A DNA stretch of 64,000 nucleotides from Candidatus Latescibacterota bacterium (GCA_965205485.1 OZ242180.1:3648001-3712000); one strand, 5' to 3'. Shown: positions 2,878 through 17,444, counted from the first letter of the stretch. Notes: generated by a model not told the origin, from the sequence alone. Translations and numbers: made by a program.

Positions 2878-5319
2878 GTGAGCAACGCCAACCTGAACTG
2901 GATCGCGAACTATATCTGGGGAATCGCCGACGACGTACTGCGCGACCTGTACGTGCGAGGCAAGTACCGCGACGTGATCCTGCCGATGACCGTGCTGCGC
3001 AGACTCGACGCGGTACTGGAGGACAGCAAGCAGGCGGTCCTGGACATGCAGGCAAATCTCGATAAAATCGGTCTGGTCGACCAGGAGGAGCCGCTAAAGC
3101 AGGCAGCGGGACAGGACTTCTACAATACCTCCAGGTTCACCCTGCGCGACCTGCGCGCCCGCGCGAACCGCCAGCAACTCGAGGCCGACTTCAGGGCCTG
3201 GCTGGACGGGTTCTCCCTGAACGTCCAGGATATCCTCGAGAACTTCGAGTTCCGAAACCAGGTCTCCCGGCTTTCCAGGGCCGACGCGTTGGGGACGCTG
3301 ATCGAAAAGCTGACGTCACCTGATATCAACCTGAGCCCGGCCCCGGTGCACAACGGCGATGGTTCGGTCAGGCACTCCGGCCTCGACAACCACGGCATGG
3401 GGACGATCTTCGAGGAGCTGATCCGGCGCTTCAACGAGGAGAACAACGAGGAGGCGGGCGAACACTGGACCCCGCGCGATGCGGTGACGTTGATGGCGAA
3501 GCTGGTCTTCCTGCCCGTCGCTGATGAGATTACGTCCAGCACCTACCTGATCTACGACGGCGCGTGCGGTACAGGCGGCATGTTGACCGTGGCCGAAGAG
3601 GTCCTTCAGCAACTCGCCGCCGAGCGCGACAAGCAGGTCTCCACCCACCTGTACGGACAGGAAATCAATGCTGAGACCTACGCCATCTGCAAGGCCGACC
3701 TTCTGCTGAAGGGTGAAGGAGATGCGGCGGACAACATCGTCGGCGGCCCGGAGCATTCCACCCTGGCCAACGACGCCTTCCCGTCCCGAGAGTTCGACTT
3801 CATGCTCTCCAATCCGCCTTACGGGAAGAGCTGGAAGACTGACCTGGAACGCATGGGCGGAAAGAAGGAAATGCGGGACCCGCGGTTCGTGATCGAACAC
3901 GCGGACGATCCCGAGTATTCGCTCGTTACCCGGTCCAGCGACGGGCAGATGCTCTTTCTCGCCAACAAGTTGTCCAAGATGAAGGAGGGCGGCAGCCGCA
4001 TCGCTGAGGTGCACAACGGCAGTTCTTTGTTCACGGGTGACGCCGGGCAGGGCGAGAGCAACATCCGCCGCTGGATCATCGAGAACGACTGGCTGGAGGC
4101 GATCGTCGCACTGCCTCTCAACATGTTTTACAACACCGGCATCGCGACCTACGTGTGGGTGATCACCAACCGAAAACCGGAACATCGCCGGGGCAAGGTG
4201 CAGTTGATTGATGCCACCGAGTGGTACCGGCCGCTCCGCAAGAATCTGGGCAAGAAGAACTGTGAACTCGGCGAGGAGGACATCCGGCGCATCTGCGACA
4301 CATTCCTGGCCTTCGAGGAAACCGAACAGAGCAAGATCTTCGACAACGCCGCCTTCGGCTACTGGAAGGTGACGGTCGAGCGGCCGCTTCGGCTCGATGG
4401 GATCGACCCCAACCGCGCCTACAAGGCCTCTGAAATCAAGAAGTTAAAGGAGAGCAGTGAACGAAGCGAAACCGCGCCGCCCGTCATCAAGAGGGTCCAC
4501 AAGAGAGGCACGGAAGCTGACCCGCTGCGCGGCCGGTTCCAGGCTACTGTCGACGGCAGGCCCGTCGTGGTCGAGTACGAACCGGACACCGACCTGCGCG
4601 ACACCGAGCAGATTCCGCTGCAGGAAGAAGGCGGCATCGAAGCGTTCCTGGGGCGGGAAGTCCTTCCCTACGCCGCTGACGCCTGGTATCAAGCGGACAG
4701 CGTAAAAGTCGGCTACGAAATCAGCTTCACTCGATACTTCTACAAGCCCCAGCCCATGCGAACTTTGGAGGAAATCGGGGCGGATATTCTGGCGCTGGAG
4801 AAAGAGACTGAGGGGTTGCTGGGCGATCTTCCGATGGTGCGCGAACCGCCGGCTGTGTACGGCAAGCCGCGCATCTACGTGGATACCTCGGTGATCGGCG
4901 GGTGCCATGATGATGAGGTCCGTGAGGCGTCCATGGAGTTGTTCGAAAAGTTCAAGCTCGGAGATGCTATCCTCGTTTATTCCGATGTCATTCTCAGGGA
5001 ACTGGCGGCGGCGCCGGAAAGCGTGCGCCAGATGATCGATCAGATTCCCGCTGCAAACAAAGAGATGCACTTTCTCACGGATGAGGCAGAACGTCTTGCG
5101 GAAGCTTACATTGATTCCGGGGCTTTAGGCCTTGCGAACCGCGCTGACGCGGAGCATATCGCCCTTGCAACCCTGGCCGAGGCCGACGTTCTGGCAAGCT
5201 GGAATTTCAGGCACATGGTGAACTGGCGACGTAACCGGTTGTATAACTCAGTCAACCGGCAAATGGGGTACGCGGAGTTGAACGTCCTATCCCCGGAGGC
5301 AATCAGCTATGACAAATGA
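2878..5319 (+). CDS. hsdM: Type I RM methyltransferase HsdM with C-terminal PIN-domain fusion (alternative start 2845)
   Basis: N-terminal IWGIADDVLRD, motif I YDGACGTGGML, motif IV NPPY, HsdM tail GYEISFTRYFY..LEKETEGLL, then PIN (RIYVDTSV..RELA..ADAEHIALA..SWNFRHMVN) from ~4870. Confidence 0.95.
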   Translation: MSNANLNWIANYIWGIADDVLRDLYVRGKYRDVILPMTVLRRLDAVLEDSKQAVLDMQANLDKIGLVDQEEPLKQAAGQDFYNTSRFTLRDLRARANRQQLEADFRAWLDGFSLNVQDILENFEFRNQVSRLSRADALGTLIEKLTSPDINLSPAPVHNGDGSVRHSGLDNHGMGTIFEELIRRFNEENNEEAGEHWTPRDAVTLMAKLVFLPVADEITSSTYLIYDGACGTGGMLTVAEEVLQQLAAERDKQVSTHLYGQEINAETYAICKADLLLKGEGDAADNIVGGPEHSTLANDAFPSREFDFMLSNPPYGKSWKTDLERMGGKKEMRDPRFVIEHADDPEYSLVTRSSDGQMLFLANKLSKMKEGGSRIAEVHNGSSLFTGDAGQGESNIRRWIIENDWLEAIVALPLNMFYNTGIATYVWVITNRKPEHRRGKVQLIDATEWYRPLRKNLGKKNCELGEEDIRRICDTFLAFEETEQSKIFDNAAFGYWKVTVERPLRLDGIDPNRAYKASEIKKLKESSERSETAPPVIKRVHKRGTEADPLRGRFQATVDGRPVVVEYEPDTDLRDTEQIPLQEEGGIEAFLGREVLPYAADAWYQADSVKVGYEISFTRYFYKPQPMRTLEEIGADILALEKETEGLLGDLPMVREPPAVYGKPRIYVDTSVIGGCHDDEVREASMELFEKFKLGDAILVYSDVILRELAAAPESVRQMIDQIPAANKEMHFLTDEAERLAEAYIDSGALGLANRADAEHIALATLAEADVLASWNFRHMVNWRRNRLYNSVNRQMGYAELNVLSPEAISYDK

Positions 5320-5515
5320 TACCGCAACCGAGAGATTCGATTGCATCCGTTTTGTGCGTGAGGTCCGTGCGAGGATTGCCGAAGAAACGGCCGGCATGAG
5401 CAATAAAGAGCGAATCCAGTACTTTCGCTCGTATCACTATGAAGACCCTGTTCTGGAACGACTGGCCGTGCCTTTGCGCGAATTGGACGAAGACGAAAGA
5501 GGGTGAACCCTGATC
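5306..5515 (+). repeat. ~210-bp direct repeat, copy A (copy B 6764-6973)
   Basis: About 90% identical from gctatgac to gtgaacc(c)Ygatc. Confidence 0.95.
5309..5506 (+). CDS. Small FDC-family protein, putative antitoxin of the PIN domain (copy 1)
   Basis: Overlaps hsdM-PIN stop by 11 nt; RFDCIRFVREVRARIAEETAGMS motif shared with three neighbours. Confidence 0.75.
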   Translation: MTNDTATERFDCIRFVREVRARIAEETAGMSNKERIQYFRSYHYEDPVLERLAVPLRELDEDERG

Positions 5516-5674
5516 AATGTCCTGAGGAGCAGCCGGCACCGCGTGACCGTACCGAGGGTTCGGGACTTGCGAGTTGAAACGCTTGACGGAATCATTGCCG
5601 ACGTCGTGAAGTTTCGTGGTCTGTCCAAACCGAAGTACGAGAAACTCTCTTTGGTTGACTCCAAGATCCCCAGC

Positions 5675-5707
5675 CTGAAGCCTTTTCCCGCAAAAAAGGA
5701 TTCCGGC
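5675..5707 (+). pseudogene. hsdS N-terminal repeat relic
   Basis: LKPFPAKKDSG versus QPYPAYKDSG in the HsdS of this locus. Confidence 0.5.
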
Positions 5708-5709
5708 GC

Positions 5710-5793
5710 TTCAGGGCATACAACGAGGTCAATCGTCAAAACGGATACCCCGCTATTGACATTCGCACGCCGGAGGAGATCCTCCATGGCTGA
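5710..5793 (+). pseudogene. Orphan PIN-toxin C-terminal relic
   Basis: FRAYNEVNRQNGYPAIDIRTPEEILHG* aligns with HsdM-PIN end RLYNSVNRQMGYAELNVLSPEAISYDK*; overlaps next ATG. Confidence 0.8.
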
Positions 5794-6001
5794 TGACACC
5801 CATAAAATAAAGAAATTCGACTGTGTCGAATTCATGCGCCAGGCCCGCGCCCGCATTACCGCCGAAACCGCCGATATGACTGCTGACGAACGGATAGAGT
5901 GGTTCAATTCGAAGCGGTATTCCGACCCCGTGCTGGAAGCAATGGCCGCGCGAATACGCAAATCGAATGAGGACAGGGCAACAGACAATCCTGACGGCTG
6001 A
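5786..6001 (+). CDS. Small FDC-family putative antitoxin (copy 2)
   Basis: MADDTHKIKKFDCVEFMRQARARITAETADMTADERIEWF..YSDPVLE; SD gaggag. Confidence 0.75.
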   Translation: MADDTHKIKKFDCVEFMRQARARITAETADMTADERIEWFNSKRYSDPVLEAMAARIRKSNEDRATDNPDG

Positions 6002-6062
6002 ATCGAAGGCAAACTGAAGCGCATTGGCCGGCGATGCTCTGCATATCGCTACCGCGACGCTT

Positions 6063-6380
6063 CATCCTGAGGAGGCCAGCCCGCTCAGCATGACCTGTTT
6101 TACGATTGCCAGGCACGTGGCTTCCCGCTGTCATCCAGAGGACTTGCCCTGAGCGTGCGGTCCATGAGCCTTTGTCCTGAGCCTGCCGAAGGATAGTCAA
6201 AATGTCGAAGGCGCTGCCCTGAGCTTGTCGAAGGGTGCCGACCCCAGGCCGACGAAGGATCTACTGCAGCATCGCATCATCCTCGAGGGTTTTCAGGTGT
6301 CGATACCTGAGAGGCAGCACGTCCGCCTGCCGCGCGGGTCGGAAGAGGCGAAAATTGCTTCGACTCTGCTCAGAATGACA
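6063..6380. repeat. Cluster of REP-like CTGAG/GTCGAAGG palindromic repeats
   Basis: catcctgag..ctcagcatg hairpin; tgtcatccagag (6129) pairs with ctcagaatgaca (6369-6380); several cctgagc..cgaagg units. Confidence 0.7.
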
Positions 6381-6405
6381 TGCGTTGCGACAAACACCGG
6401 CCGAG

Positions 6406-6479
6406 GGCAACCTGGTTTCCGTTATCCGACCTTATCCCTGAGTATCCCACGTTTCCTGGACAGCAGTAATGAAGAATAA
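6406..6479 (+). pseudogene. Second, more degenerate PIN-toxin C-terminal relic
   Basis: NL..(G/R)YPTLSLSIP..NEE*, with the same 11-nt overlap onto the next FDC gene as hsdM-PIN and copy 1. Confidence 0.5.
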
Positions 6480-6702
6480 GAGCAACGCAAAGGCTTTCGA
6501 CTGCGTAAAGTGGACGCGCGAGGTCCGGGAGAGGATCAACGCGGAACTGGCGGGAATGTCCCCGGAAGAGCGGCGTCGGCGGCTCAACGCGGCTGTCCGT
6601 AAGGATCCCTACTTCGCTCGCATTCCGAAGTCCCGGGTTGTGCGACCCTGGCAGGACGATGGGGCAAGCGACGGCGGACGATCCGGCGCCGAGGGCCATT
6701 AA
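6469..6702 (+). CDS. Small FDC-family putative antitoxin (copy 3)
   Basis: KAFDCVKWTREVRERINAELAGMSPEERRR..KDPYF. Confidence 0.75.
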   Translation: MKNKSNAKAFDCVKWTREVRERINAELAGMSPEERRRRLNAAVRKDPYFARIPKSRVVRPWQDDGASDGGRSGAEGH

Positions 6703-6766
6703 TGATGTAGACCGGGAAGGGAACGAAGGCTTGCAGCAGCGTATGGACCAAGCGTGAGATTCCGCT

Positions 6767-6964
6767 ATGACCGATGAAGCCGCTGGCAAGAGATTCGATT
6801 GCATCCGCTTTGTGCGTGACGTCCGTGCGACGATTGCCGAGGAAACAGCCGGCATGAGCAATAAAGAGCGAATCCAGTACTTTCGCTCGTATCGCTATGA
6901 AGACCCTGTTCTGGAACGACTGGCGGCGCCTTTGCGCGAATTGGACAAAGACAAACGAGGGTGA
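6767..6964 (+). CDS. Small FDC-family putative antitoxin (copy 4, near-identical to copy 1)
   Basis: RFDCIRFVRDVRATIAEETAGMSNKERIQYFRSY. Confidence 0.75.
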   Translation: MTDEAAGKRFDCIRFVRDVRATIAEETAGMSNKERIQYFRSYRYEDPVLERLAAPLRELDKDKRG

Positions 6965-7010: not shown

Positions 7011-7161
7011 CACATTGGTTCGTACAAATCCGCCGCAACCAGACGCGTCAACGCCAGATTGGATTCGGCAATACATCGTGGATCACCCGGCCGGATGGTC
7101 TGAAGACCCGGAGAATCCTGACGCTAAGAATGGCCAAGACACCTGGAGGATATACAGATGA
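7011..7161 (+). pseudogene. Internally deleted relic of a REP-associated tyrosine transposase (RAYT/IS200-like)
   Basis: IGSYKSAATRRVNAR, then in another frame IRQYIVDHPAGWSEDPENP; both are typical C-terminal blocks of this family. Confidence 0.65.
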
Positions 7162-7370
7162 GACGGAGCGGGATCATCTTCGAGGTAACTGAAGCGATTG
7201 AAGGCGGATACGACGCCAGAGCGCTCGGCCACAGCATCTTCACGCAGGGAGAAGACTGGAACGACCTGAAGGCGATGGTGCGAAATGCGGTGCGCTGTCA
7301 TTTTGACGACGAGAACATGCCACGAGTGATCAGGCTGCATCTCGTCAGAGTCGAGGCCATCGCGGTATGA
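7158..7370 (+). CDS. HicB-like antitoxin
   Basis: IIFEVTEAIEGGYDARALGHSIFTQGEDWNDLKAMVRNAVRCHF; SD ggagg. Confidence 0.8.
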   Translation: MRRSGIIFEVTEAIEGGYDARALGHSIFTQGEDWNDLKAMVRNAVRCHFDDENMPRVIRLHLVRVEAIAV

Positions 7371-7411
7371 AACTGCCCCGAGACGGGCGCCGAATTCGGG
7401 AGGAAATGGAA

Positions 7412-7735
7412 ATGACAGCGGAAACCCTGAATCAACATATTGAGATCACACCGGGCATTTCAGGCGGCAAACCGCGCATTGCCGGTCGTCGAATTGCCGT
7501 GGAGAATATCGTCATCTGGCACGAGCGCCTGGGCAAGAGCGCTGACGAAATCGCCAGTGATTACGATATTACTCTTGCGGATGTGTACGCAGCACTGGCT
7601 TACTATTTCGATCATCAGAATGAGATTGACCAATCTCTTGAGGAGAGTCGTGCATTTGTAGAATCCTTACGTCAGAAGTTCTCTTCGAAGATTTCCCAGA
7701 AGATTCAAGACCCGACCCAACATGGCAACGATTAA
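7412..7735 (+). CDS. DUF433 antitoxin (in frame with an upstream MKLPRD HicA-like stub from 7367)
   Basis: IEITPGISGGKPRIAGRRIAV..LADVYAALAYYFDH; SD gggagg. Confidence 0.9.
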   Translation: MTAETLNQHIEITPGISGGKPRIAGRRIAVENIVIWHERLGKSADEIASDYDITLADVYAALAYYFDHQNEIDQSLEESRAFVESLRQKFSSKISQKIQDPTQHGND

Positions 7736-8051
7736 GTTTTTGACCGATGAGAATGTTTCCAGAGCAGTTGTAATGGGGCTGCGACGTAGAGGTGTGGACG
7801 TACTGACTGTTGCCGAAGCGGGTAGTCGTGGAGCGTCTGACGAAGTAATTCTCGGAATTGCCGGGGAAACAGAACGCGTCATCTTCACGCAGGATGATGA
7901 CTTTCTTCGTCTTGCAGTAATTGTACATGACCACAGAGGAATTGTCTACACGTCTCAAGAAAATACGGTTGGTGAGATAATTCGTGGCTTGATGTTGATC
8001 CATCAGGTTCTGGAAGCGGAAGAGATGGTTGGGCATGTTGAATACCTGTAG
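7722..8051 (+). CDS. DUF5615 PIN-like toxin
   Basis: FLTDENV, SDEVIL, IFTQDDDFL. Confidence 0.9.
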   Translation: MATIKFLTDENVSRAVVMGLRRRGVDVLTVAEAGSRGASDEVILGIAGETERVIFTQDDDFLRLAVIVHDHRGIVYTSQENTVGEIIRGLMLIHQVLEAEEMVGHVEYL

Positions 8052-8124
8052 AACCCATCGAAATCTTGGCCAATTCAGACCTGTTTGTCGCCCACCGCAC
8101 GATTGCCTTGTACCTTGCGTTGGG

Positions 8125-8184
8125 CGCTGACGCTTGATTTCGGACGACCAGCGTCGAGCTCAACCACGAAATCAGCTTCACCCG
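8125..8184 (+). pseudogene. Degenerate copy of hsdM C-terminal segment (4674-4733)
   Basis: 44/60 nt ungapped identity, including exact acgaaatcagcttcac; TGG changed to TGA. Confidence 0.75.
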
Positions 8185-8217: not shown

Positions 8218-9045
8218 ATGCCTTTTCCAGAACCACTCAAGAGAAGGGTCCGTGAACAGGCACTTTTCCACTGCTGTATATGCCAGAAGATATCTGTCAG
8301 TTTGGAAATCCATCATATCATCCCAGAAGCAGCAGGCGGGCCGGATACGGAGGATAACGCGGCACCACTATGCCCCGGCTGTCACGGTGATTTTGGAGGT
8401 AACCCGGAAAAGCGTTCTCGGATTCGAGAGATGCGAGATCGCTGGTACGATATATCCGAGAATTGTGTTATTGGATCCACAAGAAATCCAATGCCAGATT
8501 CTCTTGAAACTGATCGATATTCATTTGCCTGTGACGAGTTTGTCCATCCTCTGATTGTTCGTGAGTTGTTAGGATGGATTTCCGATACATCAGAGACGAT
8601 TGTTGGAGTGGATCTTGAATCGGCCAACACGAGCAATCGGTTCCATGGTGACTTCGAGATAGATGATCGCGATGGCAGAAAGTGGGTGAAGTGGAACGAA
8701 CCTGAGAGTGCCCGGAGAGGGTTTTTCAAATACGCACACATTGCGACTTCGCCAACCGGAGTTGAAATGGTGGAGTGCTACGATTGTGGTGGAGGTAGTG
8801 GCGTATTTGGAAGTGTTGGGCTATTCCTTATTGATCCAGATCGAGCTTTAGACGAATCTTGTTCAGGAAAAATACCCACGCGGGATCGCCAGGTGCTTAA
8901 GGTCCTCGGATCAGTTCGTTTGGGGGATAGATACGTTGGCGAGATTACGTACAATGATAAGATCCTTGCCATTAGTCCAGACGAGGGTAGGATCAGATCT
9001 CTCGGAAGCACTTCAGAGTCGTGCCGCAAGTACCGTATTTTATAG
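8218..9045 (+). CDS. HNH endonuclease with uncharacterised C-terminal domain
   Basis: CCIC..EIHHIIP..GG..EDNAAPLCPGCH; visibly lower GC than backbone. Confidence 0.85.
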   Translation: MPFPEPLKRRVREQALFHCCICQKISVSLEIHHIIPEAAGGPDTEDNAAPLCPGCHGDFGGNPEKRSRIREMRDRWYDISENCVIGSTRNPMPDSLETDRYSFACDEFVHPLIVRELLGWISDTSETIVGVDLESANTSNRFHGDFEIDDRDGRKWVKWNEPESARRGFFKYAHIATSPTGVEMVECYDCGGGSGVFGSVGLFLIDPDRALDESCSGKIPTRDRQVLKVLGSVRLGDRYVGEITYNDKILAISPDEGRIRSLGSTSESCRKYRIL

Positions 9046-9098: not shown

Positions 9099-10532
9099 GT
9101 GCCCAATCCCATTAACCCATATCCTGCCTACAATCCTCCGAGTGTCGAATGGATCGGCGATGTGCCGGCGCATTGGGAAATTAGGCGACTCCGCACCGTC
9201 GCTGAGTTGCGTGTCAGTAACGTGGATAAGCACACTAAGGAGGGTGAAATTCCCATTCGGCTCTGCAATTACGCCGATGTGTACAAGAACGACCGTATCA
9301 CTTCGGCCATGCCATTCATGAATGCAACGGCTTCGCAGGGTGAAATCGAGAAATTCCATCTGAAGAAAGGTGATGTCCTCATTACCAAGGACTCAGAGAC
9401 TTGGGACGATATTGGGGTTCCCGCCCTGGTAACGGAGCCAGCCATGAACCTTATTTCTGGCTACCATTTGGCTTTGCTCCGGCCTTTCAAGGAGGCGATA
9501 GGGCCGTACCTGGCTCTGACGTTGCAGAGTAAGCCGGTTGCGTATCAGTTTCACGTGCGGGCGAATGGCGTAACAAGGTACGGCCTTACTCACGCTGGGA
9601 TCCAGTCCGTTCGTATCCCGCTCCCACCCCTCCTCGAACAAAACGCCATCGTCCGCTTCCTCGACCACGCCGACCGACGTATCCGGCGCTACATCCGTGC
9701 GAAGCAGAAGCAGATTGCGCTGCTGGAGGAGCAAAAGCAGGCTATTATCCACCACGCCGTCACGGGCCAGATCGACGTCCGAACCGGCCAGCCCTACCCG
9801 GCCTATAAGGACTCAGGTGTGGAGTGGCTGGTGGAGGTGCCGGTGCATTGGGCGGTACTTCCTCTGAAGAGGGCTTTTGGCTCTATGGAGTACGGAATCT
9901 CAGATTCGGGATCCGATGACGGCACTATTGGCCTGCTCACAATGGGGAACGTTCGTGACGGAACGGTAACGGTACCAACGTACGGCGGAGTCACCTCTGT
10001 TGATCCGACCCTGCTACTGCAGGACAAGGATCTACTCTTTAACCGCACAAATAGCCCTGATCTGGTAGCCAAAGTCGGTCTGTTTCGTTCCCAAGGGAGA
10101 CCAATAACTTTCGCTTCGTATCTCGTGCGAATGCGAACCGGCCCTGAAAACAGTCCAGAATACCTAAATCTGCTCTTGAACGATGTAGGCTTCGTGTCTG
10201 TCGCACGAAGAGCAGCAATTCCCAGTCTACATCAGTCGAATCTCAATCCAACCCGTTACGGTCGTCTGAAGATTCCACTTCCTCCTCAGTCTGAACAGGA
10301 GGCAATCGTCCAAGGTGTAACCGAGTGGTCGTCGGTCGTTAATTCTGCGATTGTGAAAACGAACCGTGAAATCGATCACTTACGCGAATACCGCACCCGC
10401 CTGATCGCCGATGTCGTCACCGGCAAGCTCGATGTACGCGATGCGGCGGCTGAACTACCTGAAGAAGACCTCTCGGGTGACGCAGAGGAATCGGCTGAAG
10501 AGTATAAAATCAAAACGGACTTGACCGTATGA
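9099..10532 (+). CDS. hsdS: Type I RM specificity subunit HsdS
   Basis: Two PYPAY..VEW..VPxHW repeats, two TRDs, PLPP..EQ motifs, RTRLIADVVTGKLDVR, acidic tail. Confidence 0.95.
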   Translation: MPNPINPYPAYNPPSVEWIGDVPAHWEIRRLRTVAELRVSNVDKHTKEGEIPIRLCNYADVYKNDRITSAMPFMNATASQGEIEKFHLKKGDVLITKDSETWDDIGVPALVTEPAMNLISGYHLALLRPFKEAIGPYLALTLQSKPVAYQFHVRANGVTRYGLTHAGIQSVRIPLPPLLEQNAIVRFLDHADRRIRRYIRAKQKQIALLEEQKQAIIHHAVTGQIDVRTGQPYPAYKDSGVEWLVEVPVHWAVLPLKRAFGSMEYGISDSGSDDGTIGLLTMGNVRDGTVTVPTYGGVTSVDPTLLLQDKDLLFNRTNSPDLVAKVGLFRSQGRPITFASYLVRMRTGPENSPEYLNLLLNDVGFVSVARRAAIPSLHQSNLNPTRYGRLKIPLPPQSEQEAIVQGVTEWSSVVNSAIVKTNREIDHLREYRTRLIADVVTGKLDVRDAAAELPEEDLSGDAEESAEEYKIKTDLTV

Positions 10533-10978: not shown

Positions 10979-10989
10979 AGGATGTGACT

Positions 10990-11181
10990 ATGAGAAATAT
11001 TACCGTTTCCGTCGACGAAGAGACCCATCGGCTCGCCCGTATCCGTGCGGCAGAGTTGGACACGTCGGTATCGGCACTCGTGCGAGACTTCCTGAAGAAC
11101 CTGGCTGCCGACCGCGTCGGCGGAACAGCGGCCGCAAGGCAGGACGTTGAGTCCGCAGCCGAACGTCGTCGCGGGATGTAG
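10990..11181 (+). pseudogene. Truncated RHH (VapB-like) antitoxin, paralog of 12099-12461, without toxin
   Basis: MRNITVSVDEETHRLARIRAAELDTSVS identical to the paralog; early TAG. Confidence 0.75.
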
Positions 11182-11273
11182 CACGCGGTGATTGAGAAAA
11201 TCACTACCAATGGCGGCCGATTCAGTTGTGGTGAACCACAACACGTTTACGGTTTGATCGCAGACACCTGACG

Positions 11274-11327
11274 GACGTTGAAGGACCTGCAGAAGAGCGC
11301 ACAGTTGCAGCGGAGGTGAGAATATGA
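11274..11327 (+). pseudogene. hsdS 3' tail relic
   Basis: DVEGPAEERTVAAEVRI* versus HsdS DAEESAEEYKIKTDLTV* (33/54 nt, stop in register); ATGA overlap with next gene. Confidence 0.6.
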
Positions 11328-11566
11328 TTGACTGGTCGAAATGCCCGGTCGTGGAGAGCGTGCCTGGGAAGGTGAGCGGGGCCTGGGTGTTCAAAGGAAC
11401 CCGGCTGCCGCTGTACGTCCTCTTTGAGAACCTTGCGGCGGGCGCGACCATCCACGACTTCATCGAGTGGTTCGGAGGTGTGGATGAATCGGAGGTGAAG
11501 GCAGTGCTGGAGCATGTGGCACAGGAGCTCCGTACAAGGGTGGTTCATGCGCATCCTGTTCGATAA
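11324..11566 (+). CDS. DUF433 antitoxin
   Basis: VESVPGKVSGAWVFKGTRLPL..LFENLAAG. Confidence 0.9.
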   Translation: MIDWSKCPVVESVPGKVSGAWVFKGTRLPLYVLFENLAAGATIHDFIEWFGGVDESEVKAVLEHVAQELRTRVVHAHPVR

Positions 11567-11882
11567 CGGGACACCCAGGCAGTTGCGCGTCCGGCTCTTT
11601 GGCCATGTCGTCGAAGAGGCCAGGGAACGCGGATGGGACGGTTTGGCCAACGGAGACTTGCTGGACCGTGCTGAAGAATTCGGCTTCGATGTCTTGATCA
11701 CGACCGACCAAAGCATCCAATATCAGCAGAACATGCCAGACAGACAGGTGGCCGTGGTTGTCTTGATGCAAACCGCTTGGCCGCGCATCTCGCAGAGAAC
11801 GGAAGCCATCCGCGTTGCATTGGACGAAATCCAGCCCGGCGAAGTCCGGGAAGTCCACATCCCGGCGATAGGCGAAACATAG
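11547..11882 (+). CDS. DUF5615/VapC45-like PIN toxin
   Basis: MRILFDNGTP, NGDLL, LITTDQSIQYQQN. Confidence 0.88.
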   Translation: MRILFDNGTPRQLRVRLFGHVVEEARERGWDGLANGDLLDRAEEFGFDVLITTDQSIQYQQNMPDRQVAVVVLMQTAWPRISQRTEAIRVALDEIQPGEVREVHIPAIGET

Positions 11883-11884
11883 CG

Positions 11885-11986
11885 CGGATCAACGACGCCA
11901 GCAAGAAAGGGCTGGAGCGTCCTGTATGAACGACCCTGGTCGGCCATCGCTGCAATCGCCTCCGGGGTCCGATTGTAGGGGACAGG
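11885..11986 (+). pseudogene. hsdR 5' relic 2
   Basis: DASKKGLERPV*TTLVGHRC..IVGD aligns ungapped with HsdR DTTESGLERLICAALTGQGC..TVGE (TGC changed to TGA). Confidence 0.75.
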
Positions 11987-12039
11987 TTTCGCAGGCGCCT
12001 TTACCAGGTCAACGATGGTAACCCGTCCTGCCGCAGGTC

Positions 12040-12087
12040 TTGTCCGTGGGCCGGTTGATGACCATACTGTGTTACACAGAAACTGTG
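12040..12087 (+). promoter_or_regulatory. Promoter TTGTCC-17-CATACT with operator ctgtgt-t-acacag / cacag-aaa-ctgtg
   Basis: Spacing and palindromes; duplicated at 10931-10978. Confidence 0.7.
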
Positions 12088-12098
12088 AGGTTGTGACT

Positions 12099-12461
12099 AT
12101 GAGAAATATCACCGTATCCGTCGACGAAGAGACACATCGGCTCGCGCGCATCCGTGCGGCAGAATTGGACACGTCGGTATCGTCCCTCGTGCGAGACTTT
12201 CTGAAGAGTCTGGCAGAGAACCCGGACACGGATGGCGAATCCGGTTCCGGGTCTGTCGAAACCATCTATCAGCGTCGGTGCAGGCTGCTGCGGGAAGTGC
12301 TCGCGGACTTCGATAGACAGGGCATCGGGTTGCGGATGTCCGACAACCTTCCCAGGGAGGCGTTGTACGATCGCAACGCGGCAAGGGCCGAAGCTGTCGC
12401 CGAGCGGGAGCGGCAGCGCAGTATCTCCGAAGCACTCGGATCCTCACCATGCGATTCGTAG
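12099..12461 (+). CDS. RHH antitoxin (VapB-like)
   Basis: N-terminal ribbon-helix-helix; C-terminal LPREALYDR; overlaps vapC. Confidence 0.85.
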   Translation: MRNITVSVDEETHRLARIRAAELDTSVSSLVRDFLKSLAENPDTDGESGSGSVETIYQRRCRLLREVLADFDRQGIGLRMSDNLPREALYDRNAARAEAVAERERQRSISEALGSSPCDS

Positions 12462-12874
12462 ATACCAACATTCTGCTGTATGCTGTCAGCGAGATCCCGG
12501 AGGAGGCCGACAAGCGGGCGCGGGCGGCGGAAGTCCTGACGGAACCCGACCTCGCTGCGTCCGTTCAGGTGCTGCAGGAGTTCTACCACCAGGCCACCCG
12601 GCCGACTCGAATCGGCAGTCTTTCTGGCAATAAAGCATTGCAATTCCTGGAGCCGATTCTGCTTTTTCGGATTCAGACCATGTCGACGGACGTATTTCTC
12701 AATGCCATTGCCATTAGCCGACGATTTCGCCTTTCCTACTGGGATGGCGCAATTCTCGCCGCAGCCCGTGCCTTGGGCTGCGATGCCGTGTACTCCGAGG
12801 ATTTGAGCACAGAACAGGACTACGACGGCCTCCGGGTCATCAATCCGTTCACGCACCAACAGGCTCCGCAGTGA
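12449..12874 (+). CDS. vapC: PIN-domain toxin VapC
   Basis: FVDTNILLY, QVLQEF, SYWDGAI, YSEDL, RVINPF. Confidence 0.93.
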   Translation: MRFVDTNILLYAVSEIPEEADKRARAAEVLTEPDLAASVQVLQEFYHQATRPTRIGSLSGNKALQFLEPILLFRIQTMSTDVFLNAIAISRRFRLSYWDGAILAAARALGCDAVYSEDLSTEQDYDGLRVINPFTHQQAPQ

Positions 12875-15872
12875 ACACAGACACCACCGAGAGCGGGCTT
12901 GAACGCCTGATTTGCGCCGCCCTGACAGGCCAGGGTTGCGAGCCGCCTGTTTCAGGCACCGTGGGAGAACCGCCCGCCGGTTACGGCGGTGTCGGCTGGA
13001 GCTGCGGCAATCACCACGACTATGACCGTGAGTTCTGCGTCGATCTGGCGCAGCTGTCGGCATTCCTGCACGCCACCCAGCCGGAGGCCGCCGAGGCGTT
13101 GCCGCTTTCTGAAGACGGTCCCGTGCGGCGCGCATTCCTGACCCGTCTCCAGGGCGAAATCAGCAAGCGCGGCACCATCGACGTGCTGCGCAACGGGATC
13201 AAGCACGGAGCGTTGAATCTGGACCTGTTCTACGGCACGCCGTCGGCCGGCAATCCGCAGGCACAGGAATTGTTCGAACTGAACCGGTTTACCGTTACGC
13301 GACAGCTTCGCTACAGCCGGGACGATGCGCAGCGGGCGCTGGACATCGGGCTGTTCATCAACGGGCTGCCGGTGTTCACGTTCGAGTTGAAGAACAGTCT
13401 CACCAAACAGACGGTGGACGATGCGGTCTGGCAGTACAAAAAGGACCGCAACCCGCGTGAAAAGCTGTTCGAGTTCGGGCGGTGCATCGCGCACTTCGCG
13501 TTGGACGAACGCGAGGTGCGTTTTTGTACGCACCTGAAGGGGAAGGCGTCCTGGTTCCTTCCCTTCAACCGCGGCTGGAACGACGGGGCGGGCAACCCGC
13601 CCAATCCGGACGGTCTTTCAATCGCCTATCTCTGGCGCGAAGTCCTCACCCGGGAGAGTCTCACCAACATCCTCGAGAATTACGCGCAGGTGGTGGCGTC
13701 GAAGGACGAAAAGAGCGGAAGGCAGCGAAAGACTCAGATCTGGCCGCGCTACCATCAACTCGACGTGGTGCGCCGCCTGCTGGCCGACGCGGGCGACCGC
13801 GGCGCCGGTCAGCGCTACCTGATCCAGCACTCCGCCGGCAGCGGCAAGAGCAACTCCATCGCCTGGCTCGCGCACCAGTTGATCGGACTGGAGAAGGACG
13901 ACGCTCCGGTCTTCGACTCGATCATCGTCGTCACCGACAGGGTCATCCTGGACCGTCAGATCCGCGACACGATCAAGCAATACGCCCAGGTGGCGGCAAC
14001 GGTCGGACACGCCGACCGCTCGGGCGATCTTCGTGAGTTCATCGAAAGCGGGAAGAAGATCATCATTTCCACGGTCCAGAAGTTTCCGTTCATTCTGGAC
14101 GAGATCGGCAATGAACAGCAGGGGAAGCGCTTCGCCATCATCATCGACGAAGCCCACTCGAGCCAGGGGGGTCGTACCAGCGCGGCGATGGCTCAGGCGC
14201 TGTCGGAGGCAGGCGAAGAGGACGATCAGGATACCTTCGAGGACCGGATCAACCGCCTGATGGAGTCGCGCAAGCTCCTGCCCAACGCCAGCTACTTCGC
14301 GTTTACCGCCACGCCGAAGAACAAGACGCTCGAGATCTTCGGCGCTCCGGAACCGCAGCCGGACGGTTCGGTGAGGCATCGCGCCTTCCACAGCTACACC
14401 ATGAAGCAGGCGATCCAGGAAGGATTCATCCTGGACGTACTGTCGCACTATACGCCTGTGGCGAGCTACTACAAGCTTGCCAAGACGGTTGAAGACGACC
14501 CCGAGTTCGACGCTCGAAAGGCGCAGAAGAAGCTGCGCCGCTTCGTGGAGGGCAGCGATCACGCGATCCGCCTGAAGGCCGAGATCATGGTCGACCACTT
14601 CCACGACCAGGTGCTGAAGCAGGGCAAGATCGGCGGCGCGGCGCGGGCGATGGTGGTCACGAACGGCATCGAGCGCGCGATTCAGTACTATCACGCCATC
14701 CGCGACTATCTCAAGGAGCGCAAGAGCCAATTTGAGGCGCTGGTCGCGTTCTCCGGCGAACACGACTTCGGCGGCGGCAGGGTAAGCGAGGCGTCGCTGA
14801 ACGGCCTGCCTTCGGCCCAGATCGCCAGGCGATTTCAGGAGGATCCGTACCGGTTCCTGGTGTGCGCGGACAAATTTCAGACCGGCTACGATGAGCCCCT
14901 GCTGCACACCATGTACGTAGACAAGACGCTGTCCGGCATCAAGGCCGTGCAGACGCTGTCTCGCCTCAACCGGGCCCACCCGAAGAAGCACGACGTGTTC
15001 GTTTTCGACTTTCTCAACGACACCGATACGATTCAAGACGCGTTTTCTGACTTCTACCGGACGACGATTCTGGCCGATGAGACCGACCCGAACAAGCTGC
15101 ACGACCTGCAGGCGAACTGGACGGACCCCAGGTCTATTCTGAAACGCAGGTCGACGAGTTTGTGCGGCTCTATCTGGAAGGGGTGGAACGCGACCGGCTG
15201 GATCCTATTCTGGACGCTTGTGTCGCGGTCTATCGACACGACCTTGACGAAGACGGCCAGGTTGCATTCAAGGGCAACGCCAAAGCATTCGTGCGTACGT
15301 ACGCCTTTCTTTCGTCCGTGCTTCCGTATAACGTTGCCGAATGGGAAAAACGTTCGATTTTCCTGAACTTCCTGGTGCCGAAGTTGCCGGCGCCCGAGGA
15401 AGAGGACCTCTCCAAGGGAATCCTGGACGCGATCGATCTGGACAGTTATCGGGTGGAGAAGCGGGCGATGCAACGGATCCTGTTGGAGGACGAAGATGCC
15501 GAGATCGATCCGGTACCGGGTTCAGGGGGAGGGCATCAACCGGAGCTGGAATTGGATCGACTTTCCAACATCATTCGGGAATTCAACGATAACTATGGGC
15601 ATATTAAATGGGCAGATGAAGACCGTGTACAGCAACTCATCGTCGAGACAATTCCCGCCCGCGTCGCCGCTGACACCGCGTTCCAAAACGCCCGGGTAAA
15701 CTCCGACCGGCAGAATGCACGGATCGAACACGACAAGGCGCTGCTGCGCGTGATGACCGCCATGATGAAGGACGACACCCAGCTATTCAAGAATTTCATG
15801 GACAATCCTGGCTTTAAGCGCTGGATGACTAACAAGGTGTTCGGACTTGCGTACAATCCGGTAGAGAGGTAA
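12871..15872 (+). CDS. hsdR: Type I RM restriction subunit HsdR, split by a -1 frameshift at ~15114
   Basis: FELKN, HSAGSGKS, DEAH, FTATP, FQTGYD; one restored G gives LHDLQAELDGPQVYS running into ORF 15162-15872. Confidence 0.93.
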
Positions 15873-15996
15873 CGTAGGTCACGCTGTGTGTCCGTTTAAT
15901 GGCTTGATTCGGACAGAAGATACCGGAGACAATCTCGCACACACAGTCCACAGGCAATGTAATTCGGATTCGAACCGACTGCCGTGTAAATACTGC

Positions 15997-16200
15997 ATGA
16001 AGATTCGGGAACTATTGAGAGAATTGCGCAAGGACGGATGGTACGAGGTGCGCCGCCGCGGGAGCCACCGGGTGTTGCGACATTCGACAAAGCGTGGCAT
16101 CGTCGTGGTTGCTGGGAACCCCAACGCGGATATCAAGGCCGGTACGCTGAGCCAGGTACTCAAACAGGCCGGATTGAAAGAGAACGACATGGAGGATTAA
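15997..16200 (+). CDS. hicA: HicA toxin
   Basis: LRKDGW..RRRGSH..H..IKAGTLSQVLKQAGL. Confidence 0.9.
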   Translation: MKIRELLRELRKDGWYEVRRRGSHRVLRHSTKRGIVVVAGNPNADIKAGTLSQVLKQAGLKENDMED

Positions 16201-16201
16201 G

Positions 16202-16423
16202 ATGGCACAGACTGAGTATCTTGTCATTGTAGAGAATTACGGCCACGGGTCGTACGGGGCGTATGTACCGGAACTTCCGGGGATTGGCGTTGCGGGTGAG
16301 ACGGAGGAGCAAGTGCGCGACCTGGTTGCCGAAGCTATCAGGTTGTATCTAGACGAACTTGAGCGGGATGGTGAGTCGAAGTCGACTTCGGTAGTGGTGA
16401 ACCACTACACCGTTACGGTCTAA
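16202..16423 (+). CDS. hicB: HicB antitoxin (short form)
   Basis: YGAYVPELPG..AGETEEQ..EAIRLYL. Confidence 0.9.
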   Translation: MAQTEYLVIVENYGHGSYGAYVPELPGIGVAGETEEQVRDLVAEAIRLYLDELERDGESKSTSVVVNHYTVTV

Positions 16424-16437
16424 CCCTCGGTGCCCGA

Positions 16438-16476
16438 CGGCTTTCAACCCCGCGATGCCGGAGTGCTTGAAAGCCG
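16438..16476. terminator. Inverted repeat after hicB
   Basis: cggctttcaa..ttgaaagccg 10-bp stem, no clear U-tract. Confidence 0.4.
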
Positions 16477-16577
16477 GTTGATTCGACATCACACCGCTCT
16501 GGATGTTATCTTAAGTAGTACGGTAGGGAGAGATAGATGAAAATCGTATATGTAATCAGATCGCTCACGGGACTGCG

Positions 16578-17444
16578 ATGAACAAGAGGTATGCCCCTGT
16601 AGAGAGGTGCATCTACTGCGGTACAAACGAAGGACCTCTTGGTGACGAGCACATTGTCCCGCTTGCGCTCGGTGGCCGACTAATCCTGCCTAAATCAAGT
16701 TGTAGAGATTGCGAGAAGATAATAAATCGTCAGGTCGAAGGGCCAATCTTACAGAGTGAATGGGGAGATTTCCGGATTAAACACAATTTTCCGACGCGAA
16801 ACAAGAAAGGTCGACGTTCTACATCCGAGTTACGTCGGCCCGACGGATCGAAAATGCGCATTCCCATCCGCGAACACGCAACGCCTGTTCCTTTATATCA
16901 ATTCCGGGATGCACGTTTACTTTCAGGAGGTCAGGCTCGCGAAAACGACTTTACAGTATCCATGCTTGCAAGTCACACAGACGAAATGGCGATGCAGAAG
17001 AGGCATGAAGAGTGGGACCGTACGCATACATTCGTGGCTGAGCCATACCGATTTGCTCGATGGATCGCGAAGATTGCATATAGCTATGCAGTTGCAGAAC
17101 TCGGAGGAAGGTTGTTCATGCCTCTTGTTACTGATGTGATTCTTGGGAAATCCGAAGACGTTCTGTCCATCGTCGGAGGATCCAAGTCTCCGCACAAAGG
17201 AACTCTTTCTGGAACAATCGAAGTAAAGACCAGCTTTCAAATTGAAGTACGAACAGCGCAATATGGTATGGGATTGGTAGGACTCTTGATCGTACACGTG
17301 CAATTGCTAGAACCGTTAGCGATACCCTCGTACCACACTGTGGTTGGCATCATTGACTTTGCGAATCCCCATCATTGCGAGGAATTCGAAAAATTCCGCG
17401 TGCAGCATCGATGGCAGCCAAATGAAATTGGAGGAAGTGCGTAG
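16578..17444 (+). CDS. HNH endonuclease family protein
   Basis: CIYCG..DEHIVPLALGG..SCRDC; lower GC. Confidence 0.85.
   Translation: MNKRYAPVERCIYCGTNEGPLGDEHIVPLALGGRLILPKSSCRDCEKIINRQVEGPILQSEWGDFRIKHNFPTRNKKGRRSTSELRRPDGSKMRIPIREHATPVPLYQFRDARLLSGGQARENDFTVSMLASHTDEMAMQKRHEEWDRTHTFVAEPYRFARWIAKIAYSYAVAELGGRLFMPLVTDVILGKSEDVLSIVGGSKSPHKGTLSGTIEVKTSFQIEVRTAQYGMGLVGLLIVHVQLLEPLAIPSYHTVVGIIDFANPHHCEEFEKFRVQHRWQPNEIGGSA

Follow-up and report, generated by a model that had tools for sequence, protein, structure and literature searches.

The window analysed here is a 64,000-nucleotide stretch of a Candidatus Latescibacterota bacterium genome (GCA_965205485.1, OZ242180.1:3648001-3712000), and it contains a type I restriction-modification (RM) gene set in one operon: hsdM, whose motif I and NPPY are intact, hsdS and hsdR. 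In this operon hsdM continues in frame through a short linker into a PIN domain, and the stop codon of the fusion is overlapped by a small gene of a family here called FDC, which heads an array of further FDC genes. The order along the locus is hsdM-PIN, FDC array, hicB, DUF433/DUF5615, a scar of the hsdM 3' end, HNH, hsdS, further toxin-antitoxin (TA) genes and hsdR. In our opinion the parts are of known kinds, and their combination is real and has apparently not been described before. The fusion, the intact active site of its PIN tip and the matching of tips with FDC genes by type are established at the sequence level. The features that carry the argument are these.

2878..4830, plus strand: HsdM core, a type I N6-adenine methyltransferase (Pfam, PADLOC, motifs, same-genus identity)
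4831..4866, plus strand: linker PMVREPPAVYGK, 12 residues, joining the HsdM tail to the PIN domain
4867..5319, plus strand: PIN/VapC-fold tip, type A (structure model, fold searches, conservation in 120 fusions, identity scan)
5309..5506, plus strand: FDC1, putative cognate antitoxin of tip A, sharing 11 nucleotides with the end of the fusion gene
5529..5658, plus strand: frameshifted 3' piece of a hicA toxin gene (alignable to an intact copy in genome G004, which is Pfam HicA_toxin)
5704..5793, plus strand: 3' remnant of a type-B PIN tip, its last 29 or so codons (profile positions 120-148), overlapping the start of FDC2
5786..6001, plus strand: FDC2, orphan putative antitoxin, type B
6028..6061, plus strand: weak internal PIN remnant (DALHIA motif), marginal, with a score of 36 against a shuffle maximum of 30
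6469..6702, plus strand: FDC3, orphan putative antitoxin, type D
6767..6964, plus strand: FDC4, second type-A copy, 83% identical to FDC1

An earlier note on this DNA had read the first gene as a complete HsdM running in frame into a PIN domain, and this reading holds. A single open frame on the plus strand, from 2845 or 2878 to 5319, encodes core, linker and tip, with a product of 813 residues counted from 2878; there is an in-frame ATG upstream at 2845, and the alignment of relatives begins at 2878. The core (residues 1-651) matches HsdM_N (PF12161) and N6_Mtase (PF02384) in Pfam and MTase_I in PADLOC (8e-238), has motif I at residue 226 and NPPY at residue 312, ends in a C-terminal tail helix (residues 628-651) and is 92-97% identical to HsdM of the same genus. 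The linker, read in the fusion frame, is PMVREPPAVYGKP. The note had pointed to positions 4800-4900 as the place where reads might betray a stop or an indel. The junction is open in eight other same-genus genomes and in the best 120 of 4175 search hits, and a gap-free contig of 752 nucleotides from another study (run X5, labelled as a sponge metagenome) spans 4638-5388 at about 90% identity, with neither stop nor indel. The open frames of the relatives and the X5 contig rule out an assembly slip at the junction.

Two side observations concern this region. The linker motif V(R/G)EPPA(V/G)YG has two matches in the genome with the pattern tested, one in the HsdM-PIN linker (4837-4860) and one near the N-terminus of HsdR (12963-12986); HsdR relatives retain a similar motif, and it is possibly a shared short binding motif. 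In one protein, P0101, HsdM-PIN reads through into the FDC partner as one chain, a single case that may be a frameshift artefact.

The tip has 150 residues, with the catalytic codons D at 4882, E at 4999, D at 5146 and N at 5203, so that the roughly 150-residue PIN domain with D/E/D/N positions proposed earlier is indeed present. Folded together with 78 relatives it gives a model with a predicted local distance difference test score (pLDDT) of 94; folding from the single sequence gave 43, which is unusable, and the alignment-based model was therefore used. The model has a VapC/PIN fold, with VapC matches in Foldseek and, against 7vwo_A, a VIA Z of 13.1 and a root-mean-square deviation of 2.5 Å over 125 residues. 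Its best structural matches are VapC toxins (PDB 7vwo, 7by2 and 4chg among them), and its identity with VapC proteins of solved structure is 12-20%; further matches are Nob1, Utp24 and protein-only RNase P. The window tip alone meets no Pfam family at a meaningful level, while 52 of the 78 aligned relatives match PF01850 at E<=0.01; a PDB sequence search with the PIN profile returned no match, and no PADLOC model matches PIN or FDC. Across 120 fusions the four site residues are kept in 119 (D), 120 (E), 118 (D) and 120 (N), and motif I and NPPY of HsdM are both intact in all 110 full-length fusions. The fused tips are under purifying selection, with a ratio of nonsynonymous to synonymous substitution rates (dN/dS) of 0.13-0.30; for the HsdM cores it is 0.04-0.07.

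The 65-residue FDC gene that the earlier note saw overlapping the fusion stop is FDC1, and the three further paralogs it reported are FDC2, FDC3 and FDC4. The family has no assignment at a meaningful level in Pfam, NCBIfam or PADLOC; a search of the ESM Atlas gave only unnamed clusters at 0.91, a weak result with its recognition value below the mark, and no family match points to a recognised DNA-binding domain (RHH, AbrB, HTH or Phd). The prediction of a complex between tip A and FDC1, which the note had suggested as a check, scored 0.71, a mark reached by 116 of 157 solved complexes and by 2 of 215 mismatched pairs; the best of three controls scored 0.00. The runs agree in at least 96% of contacts, the pLDDT of the partner is at least 79, and the modelled FDC1 covers PIN residues 6-12, 43-51, 90-94 and 112-113, which include all four site residues. 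The predicted interface positions are more variable than others (0.38 versus 0.54), a difference confounded by surface exposure which we do not use as support.

Variation of tips on a conserved HsdM, each with an FDC of its own, was a further expectation of the note, and it is what the genus presents. Four tip types occur: A (window, G009, G012), B (G004, G006, G011, G014), C (G001) and D (G008). They are 50-64% identical to each other, on HsdM cores that are 90-97% identical. The core nearest to that of the window, in G014 (97%), carries a tip of only 59% identity, while the nearest tip, in G012 (90%), sits on a core of 93%; the tip closest to tip D is one from Bryobacterales (73%), whose core is 76% identical. 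Over the 28 loci that have all three parts, the distance between FDC genes goes with that between tips (partial rho 0.61) and not with that between cores (0.12), loci lacking a full core being omitted and kin among them not being independent. DNA identity to type-B and type-D alleles is high until about 4916 and then falls to 45-60%, which puts the exchange point near 4917 and makes the hsdM 3' end, the linker and the first PIN strand the anchor of the exchange. In G001, which has tip C on its HsdM, the FDC gene is directly followed by a 274-nucleotide copy of this anchor and then by a complete tip A with FDC-A; this spare cassette is 96% identical to the live allele of G009. As judged from these alignments, tip and FDC are exchanged together by recombination through this conserved anchor.

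The remainder of the array bears on what happens to displaced tips. The earlier note had placed both FDC2 and FDC3 behind remnants of PIN C-termini. For FDC2 this is so: the type-B remnant at 5704-5793 has an alignment score of 133, with shuffles reaching at most 32. For FDC3 it is not, since only the 11-nucleotide stop/start overlap in front of it matches tip D, and its score of 22 is not significant given shuffles of up to 29; the orthologues of FDC3 in G007 and G009 do retain clear type-D remnants. By type, FDC2 groups with the partners of tip B in G004, G006, G011 and G014 (dN/dS to other B copies 0.15-0.42), and FDC3 with the partner of tip D in G008 (dN/dS 0.14-0.39). FDC4 lies within a 235-nucleotide direct repeat of 5303-5537. 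Apart from these genes, the array holds a REP-like repeat (6175-6236), whose 20-mer at 6217-6236 matches the genome 78 times at two or fewer mismatches, and a remnant of an IS200-like (Y1) transposase at 7058-7123; full-length genes of this kind occur in the arrays of G001, G006 and G014.

The same picture emerges from a tally over fourteen stretches from 13 same-genus genomes, in which 10 PIN domains are full and 15 are fragments. Of the FDC genes, 27 are intact, 17 more than there are full PINs, and 2 are broken; the hsdM 3' end is present in 10 additional copies. Orphan FDC genes of types B and D mostly stand behind the 3' end of their own tip type. One orphaning junction, in which the hicA 3' end is followed by a short type-B remnant and FDC-B, is common to six species. 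There the remnant has decayed (0.28-1.29 for pN/pS, the ratio of nonsynonymous to synonymous differences per site; a 9-nucleotide deletion in two), while the FDC is constrained (pN/pS 0.11-0.59) and intact in five of the six. HicAB is subject to the same bias: in the window hicB is intact, and of hicA there are left a six-codon stub at 7367 and the 3' piece at 5529-5658. On this evidence from sequence comparison, orphan FDC genes remain under purifying selection while the adjacent toxin remnants decay. The idea that the array retains antidotes to earlier tips is thereby strengthened, given that the orphans carry remnants of former tips and are under purifying selection. A lone gene of the FDC family outside the window, at G000:C1:2778395-2778631, is accompanied by a PIN reduced to a few codons.

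How widespread is this arrangement? Fifteen same-genus genomes were searched, the window genome included; hsdM is intact in 12 within the regions fetched, G005 and G010 were left out, and G002 has array genes without hsdM. Nine of the 12 hsdM genes are fused in frame, and three (G003, G007, G013) end normally. A search with the junction region, in which 4175 of 8000 candidates were scored, gave the 120 best hits already mentioned, all of which cover the region and carry N6_Mtase. Among the best 80 of 527 loci from a scan of named genomes, a full PIN is fused to the HsdM tail in 31, six of which are the same loci as in the genus set. By title, these fusion loci belong to Candidatus Latescibacterota, Gemmatimonadota, Acidobacteriota lineages and Gammaproteobacteria, that is, to four phyla, so comparable fusions in relatives, which the note had proposed to look for, are not hard to find. 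An FDC gene is downstream of the fusion in all 31, and hsdS is on the same strand in 30. Lineages with the fusion are typical sponge symbionts.

A tree built from 32 fused and 55 short PINs places every fused tip in a single clade (99/88), together with four short proteins, inside the free PIN relatives. Free PIN+FDC pairs occur away from RM genes, with an FDC match after the PIN in 12 of 14 loci and an hsd match in none of the 14 (one locus having been read in the wrong orientation); they are found in environmental genomes and viral contigs as well. Given one fused clade and widespread free pairs, the PIN+FDC pair is old and was most likely attached to HsdM once. Nine free PIN relatives lie in viral contigs, none of them fused to HsdM; no FDC-like gene was found in viral contigs with two narrow patterns, which says little on phage mimics, and no plasmid record covers 80% of the junction query. 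Among the 150 best representatives with this HsdM tail, 34 extend at least 40 residues beyond it: three have a full PIN and two a broken one, and the rest are read-throughs into HsdS or HsdR, or singletons. No recurrent non-RM tip other than PIN was seen among these 150 or the 80 loci, both of which are best-scoring subsets. Outside the window, at G000:C1:1094776-1095450, there is also a free PIN that belongs distantly to this broad family and has a small partner of another kind.

Downstream of the FDC genes the locus continues with the following features.

7158..7370, plus strand: HicB-like antitoxin gene, with hicA reduced to a six-codon 5' stub (at 7367) fused to the next gene
7367..8051, plus strand: DUF433 + DUF5615 (PIN_10-type) toxin-antitoxin pair (Pfam)
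8113..8184, plus strand: degenerate hsdM 3' copy, a cassette boundary scar, 71% identical to 4662-4733
8218..9045, plus strand: HNH nuclease cargo gene (Pfam HNH), also present in the array of G008
9099..10532, plus strand: HsdS specificity subunit, 29-52% identical to same-genus HsdS
10984..12874, plus strand: second TA stretch, with a truncated RHH gene (10984-11181), DUF433/DUF5615 (11324-11882) and RHH + VapC (12099-12874) (Pfam)
12871..15872, plus strand: HsdR (Pfam, PADLOC), with a frameshift at 15113

The frameshift in hsdR is probably a one-base assembly error, since one more base is present at this point in contigs of runs X1, X2 and X5, the first two of which may represent the source sample. 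An intact hicA follows the HicB-like gene in G002, G004 and G006, and better-preserved hsdM 3' copies are present at the corresponding junction in G008 and G012. Given these genes, the note's description of the array as one of cognate and orphan antitoxins was right as regards the FDC genes and too narrow as regards the cargo, which also comprises hicB without hicA, DUF433/DUF5615, RHH-VapC and HNH. Identity among same-genus genomes is 92-97% for HsdM and 89-98% for HsdR; HsdS, at 29-52%, is far more divergent, so that the middle of the operon as a whole is a swapped cassette. The window has no tRNA genes, no RNA holder is listed for it, and promoter and terminator scans gave no usable signal.

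Several side observations can be recorded here. An intact HicA-HicB pair and another HNH-domain gene follow hsdR (15985-17444). In loci L143, L142, L144, L147, L079 and L032, hsdS starts with the first codons of hicA and overlaps the hicB stop, hicA having been deleted and its start taken over. At L022 (G002:C1:5139700-5142200), hicBA, FDC-B, FDC-D and RHH-VapC persist with scraps of hsdR only, and hsdM and hsdS are absent from 19.5 kb. At L027/L028 (G008:C1:4933800-4955000), a degenerate whole hsd operon with its array stands directly upstream of an intact operon, which is what is expected if an incoming operon had integrated. The tip-less loci L034 and L035, from other genera (G015 and G016), have two or three hsdM 3' copies, some joined to 5' stubs of hsdS, between cargo genes.

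The note had compared the locus to polymorphic toxins, and this comparison holds in part. In common with the type VI secretion system effector-immunity arrays of Vibrio cholerae (Kirchberger et al. 2017, PMC5361080) and with Rhs and contact-dependent inhibition loci, there is a conserved 5' anchor, a variable 3' toxin and a cognate immunity gene; displacement proceeds one step after another, with former immunity genes and 3' scraps of toxin left behind downstream; and there is a spare cassette behind a homology repeat, here in G001. What the locus shares is thus the variable tip, the cognate gene and orphan cassettes with homology to the carrier. It differs in that the carrier is a cytoplasmic methyltransferase subunit and all tips belong to one PIN family. 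Searches of Pfam, NCBIfam and PADLOC found no export or delivery domain on the carrier, which is HsdM from end to end, and without such a domain the toxin cannot reach other cells. Since PIN is also the sole recurrent non-RM tip, HsdM-PIN stands outside the strict class of polymorphic toxins.

Other relatives are closer in one respect or another. PrrC of EcoprrI (PMC3874165) and Ronin, that is RonA with HsdMS (bioRxiv 10.1101/2023.04.06.535777), likewise have an effector encoded in a type I RM operon and tied to the complex, and the effector of PrrC is an RNase (PMC3874165), as predicted for the PIN tip; in HsdM-PIN, unlike these, the tie is covalent, the effector has a VapC-fold PIN, and there is a small partner of its own and an allelic series. 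With VapBC there are in common the PIN fold with its four polar or acidic site residues, the overlapping two-gene layout and a small helical partner modelled over the site. The toxin gene comes first, however, with FDC downstream in 31 of 31 loci, the partner is of no known family, and the toxin is fused to HsdM. Hence PIN+FDC is not canonical VapBC. TA pairs, DUF433-PIN_10 included, are co-transcribed with hsdM, hsdS and hsdR in the operons described by Matelska (2017, PMC5499597) and Payne (2024, bioRxiv 10.1101/2024.01.29.577857), and are rearranged between close relatives as in the window locus. The PIN genes described in these two papers and in PMC7641849 are separate neighbours of type I genes, not in-frame fusions with exchangeable tips; according to Matelska's survey of PIN domains (PMC5499597), direct interaction of TA and RM had not been shown as of 2017. 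Finally, orphan antitoxins have been proposed as anti-addiction modules that are retained without a toxin and neutralise toxins of competing elements, although PMC7354431 presents their common use as such as not shown. In the case of HsdM-PIN the rivals are alleles of one chromosomal locus, and the orphans lie in cis, in order of displacement.

How might such a fusion work? We propose that it is a toxin-antitoxin lock on a type I restriction locus, in which old antitoxins ease the displacement of rival alleles, and we put the probability of this proposal at roughly 0.5. A widespread, unnamed, toxin-first pair, consisting of a VapC-fold PIN RNase and a small helical FDC, would have been grafted once onto the C-terminus of HsdM. 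The tip would be carried by the M2S complex, directly behind the tail helix with which HsdM binds HsdS, and FDC would keep it off by covering the active site; a four-helix bundle of HsdS with the two HsdM tails is known from PacII (PMC9613975). The supply of FDC would cease when an incoming hsd allele replaces the resident one or a phage shuts off host expression; the more stable HsdM-PIN would then be freed to cleave RNA. This would amount to the post-segregational killing that type I systems otherwise lack, a kind of killing that has been argued to act between alleles replaced by recombination (PMC3874152). Each new tip would displace the old one and push the old FDC, with a 3' scrap of toxin, downstream. 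The orphan would be retained as an antidote, so that an allele equipped against rival tips could replace those alleles without killing the cell. The outcome may be an arms race of alleles at a locus with constantly swapped HsdS. Such safe overwriting would explain why orphans are under selection in cis although the toxin is never exported.

Certain observations weigh against this proposal. The lock alone leaves the covalent link unexplained, since a free TA pair beside hsdM would lock the locus too. Most fusion loci have a single FDC, with more than one in only 12 of 31. Tip-less alleles are common (3 of 12 in the genus, and L079, L082 and L107 retain linker and FDC without a tip), hence the lock can be shed. 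There is a methionine in 67 of 119 linkers (in the window the ATG at 4834, which is not conserved), so that a separate PIN product is possible in some. Part of the low dN/dS of orphans could be due to gene conversion by live copies, and small counts underlie it. The kinship among the 28 loci detracts from the correlation of FDC with tip. The score of the complex may reflect likeness to solved VapBC pairs and, because cousins of the true partner pass as well, it is no proof of specificity.

The main rival to the lock explains the covalent link better, although we consider it somewhat unlikely. It holds that the PIN, being tethered, can sense what happens to the RM complex: binding of a DNA mimic (Ocr, ArdA), the loss of HsdS or a conformational change would displace FDC or pair two tips and so cause abortive infection. 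Tip variation would then stem from an arms race with phages and the orphans would be by-products, a view that is compatible with the lock. Indeed, the covalent link has long been retained across four phyla, hsdS follows the fusion on the same strand in almost every locus, and the HsdM tails meet on the HsdS coiled coil (PMC9613975), which, if it extends to the HsdM-PIN family, would make two tips neighbours. PrrC and Ronin are precedents (PMC3874165; bioRxiv 10.1101/2023.04.06.535777; PMC12707154), but in those systems it is the RM complex that holds PrrC or RonA, while the HsdM-borne tip has a dedicated small partner, and neither PIN nor FDC matches a PADLOC model. What such a sensor leaves unexplained is the purifying selection on orphan FDC genes and their persistence in G002, which has lost both hsdM and hsdS.

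Less well than either fits the possibility, improbable in our opinion, that the slot between hsdM and hsdS is a neutral hotspot where TA pairs and cargo collect, that a lost stop once fused the PIN, and that recombination shuffles the cargo, orphans accumulating only because deletion of a toxin is tolerated and deletion of an antitoxin is not. The slot does hold unrelated cargo (HicAB, DUF433/DUF5615, RHH-VapC, HNH, an IS200-like transposase), hicB outlives hicA as well, tip-less alleles are frequent, and type I operons commonly have other genes embedded in them (bioRxiv 10.1101/2024.01.29.577857; PMC5499597). Yet a single fusion clade has diversified into many tip types over four phyla with an intact site and a dN/dS of about 0.2, orphans stay intact while neighbouring remnants decay, and PIN alone recurs, other read-throughs past the HsdM tail entering HsdS or HsdR or being singletons. 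We doubt most that the PIN is no cell toxin and serves the RM complex as an accessory nuclease or a regulator (trimming operon mRNA or nucleic-acid intermediates, for instance), with FDC as a tuning subunit: PIN folds do include processing nucleases such as the Nob1, Utp24 and protein-only RNase P found by structure, and the toxin-first order and an FDC without a recognised DNA-binding domain are unlike VapBC, but free-standing PIN+FDC pairs exist without RM genes, VapC toxins are the best structural matches, and PIN is lost while FDC is retained, as for a toxin and its antidote.

There is also a broader statement, which we hold to be less likely than not: that this is an intracellular polymorphic toxin system on a restriction enzyme, in which type I RM alleles circulating among co-living bacteria of several phyla carry a tethered RNase of their own type, fired upon displacement or inhibition of the RM complex, while arrays of old antitoxins in cis decide which allele may overwrite which and so enforce a hierarchy of HsdS identities.

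As to novelty, we found no published description of an HsdM-PIN fusion in a search that left out most subscription journals and the bioRxiv supplements of Payne 2024 and Silas 2023, which could list such loci. The analysis also defines a toxin-first PIN/FDC pair that is widespread, has no name and is absent from Pfam, NCBIfam and PADLOC, and it flags more than 120 protein clusters that profile annotation labels merely as N6 methylases. The fusion would be a direct covalent coupling of a TA module to a type I restriction enzyme. With matched tips, cognates and orphans of four types, it offers a test system for the question whether orphan antitoxins are used for anti-addiction, and a handle on what makes type I loci, given that they lack post-segregational killing, either resist or permit replacement by alleles of new specificity. 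If the intracellular polymorphic toxin statement is true, the locus would both record and enforce a hierarchy of epigenetic (HsdS) identities.

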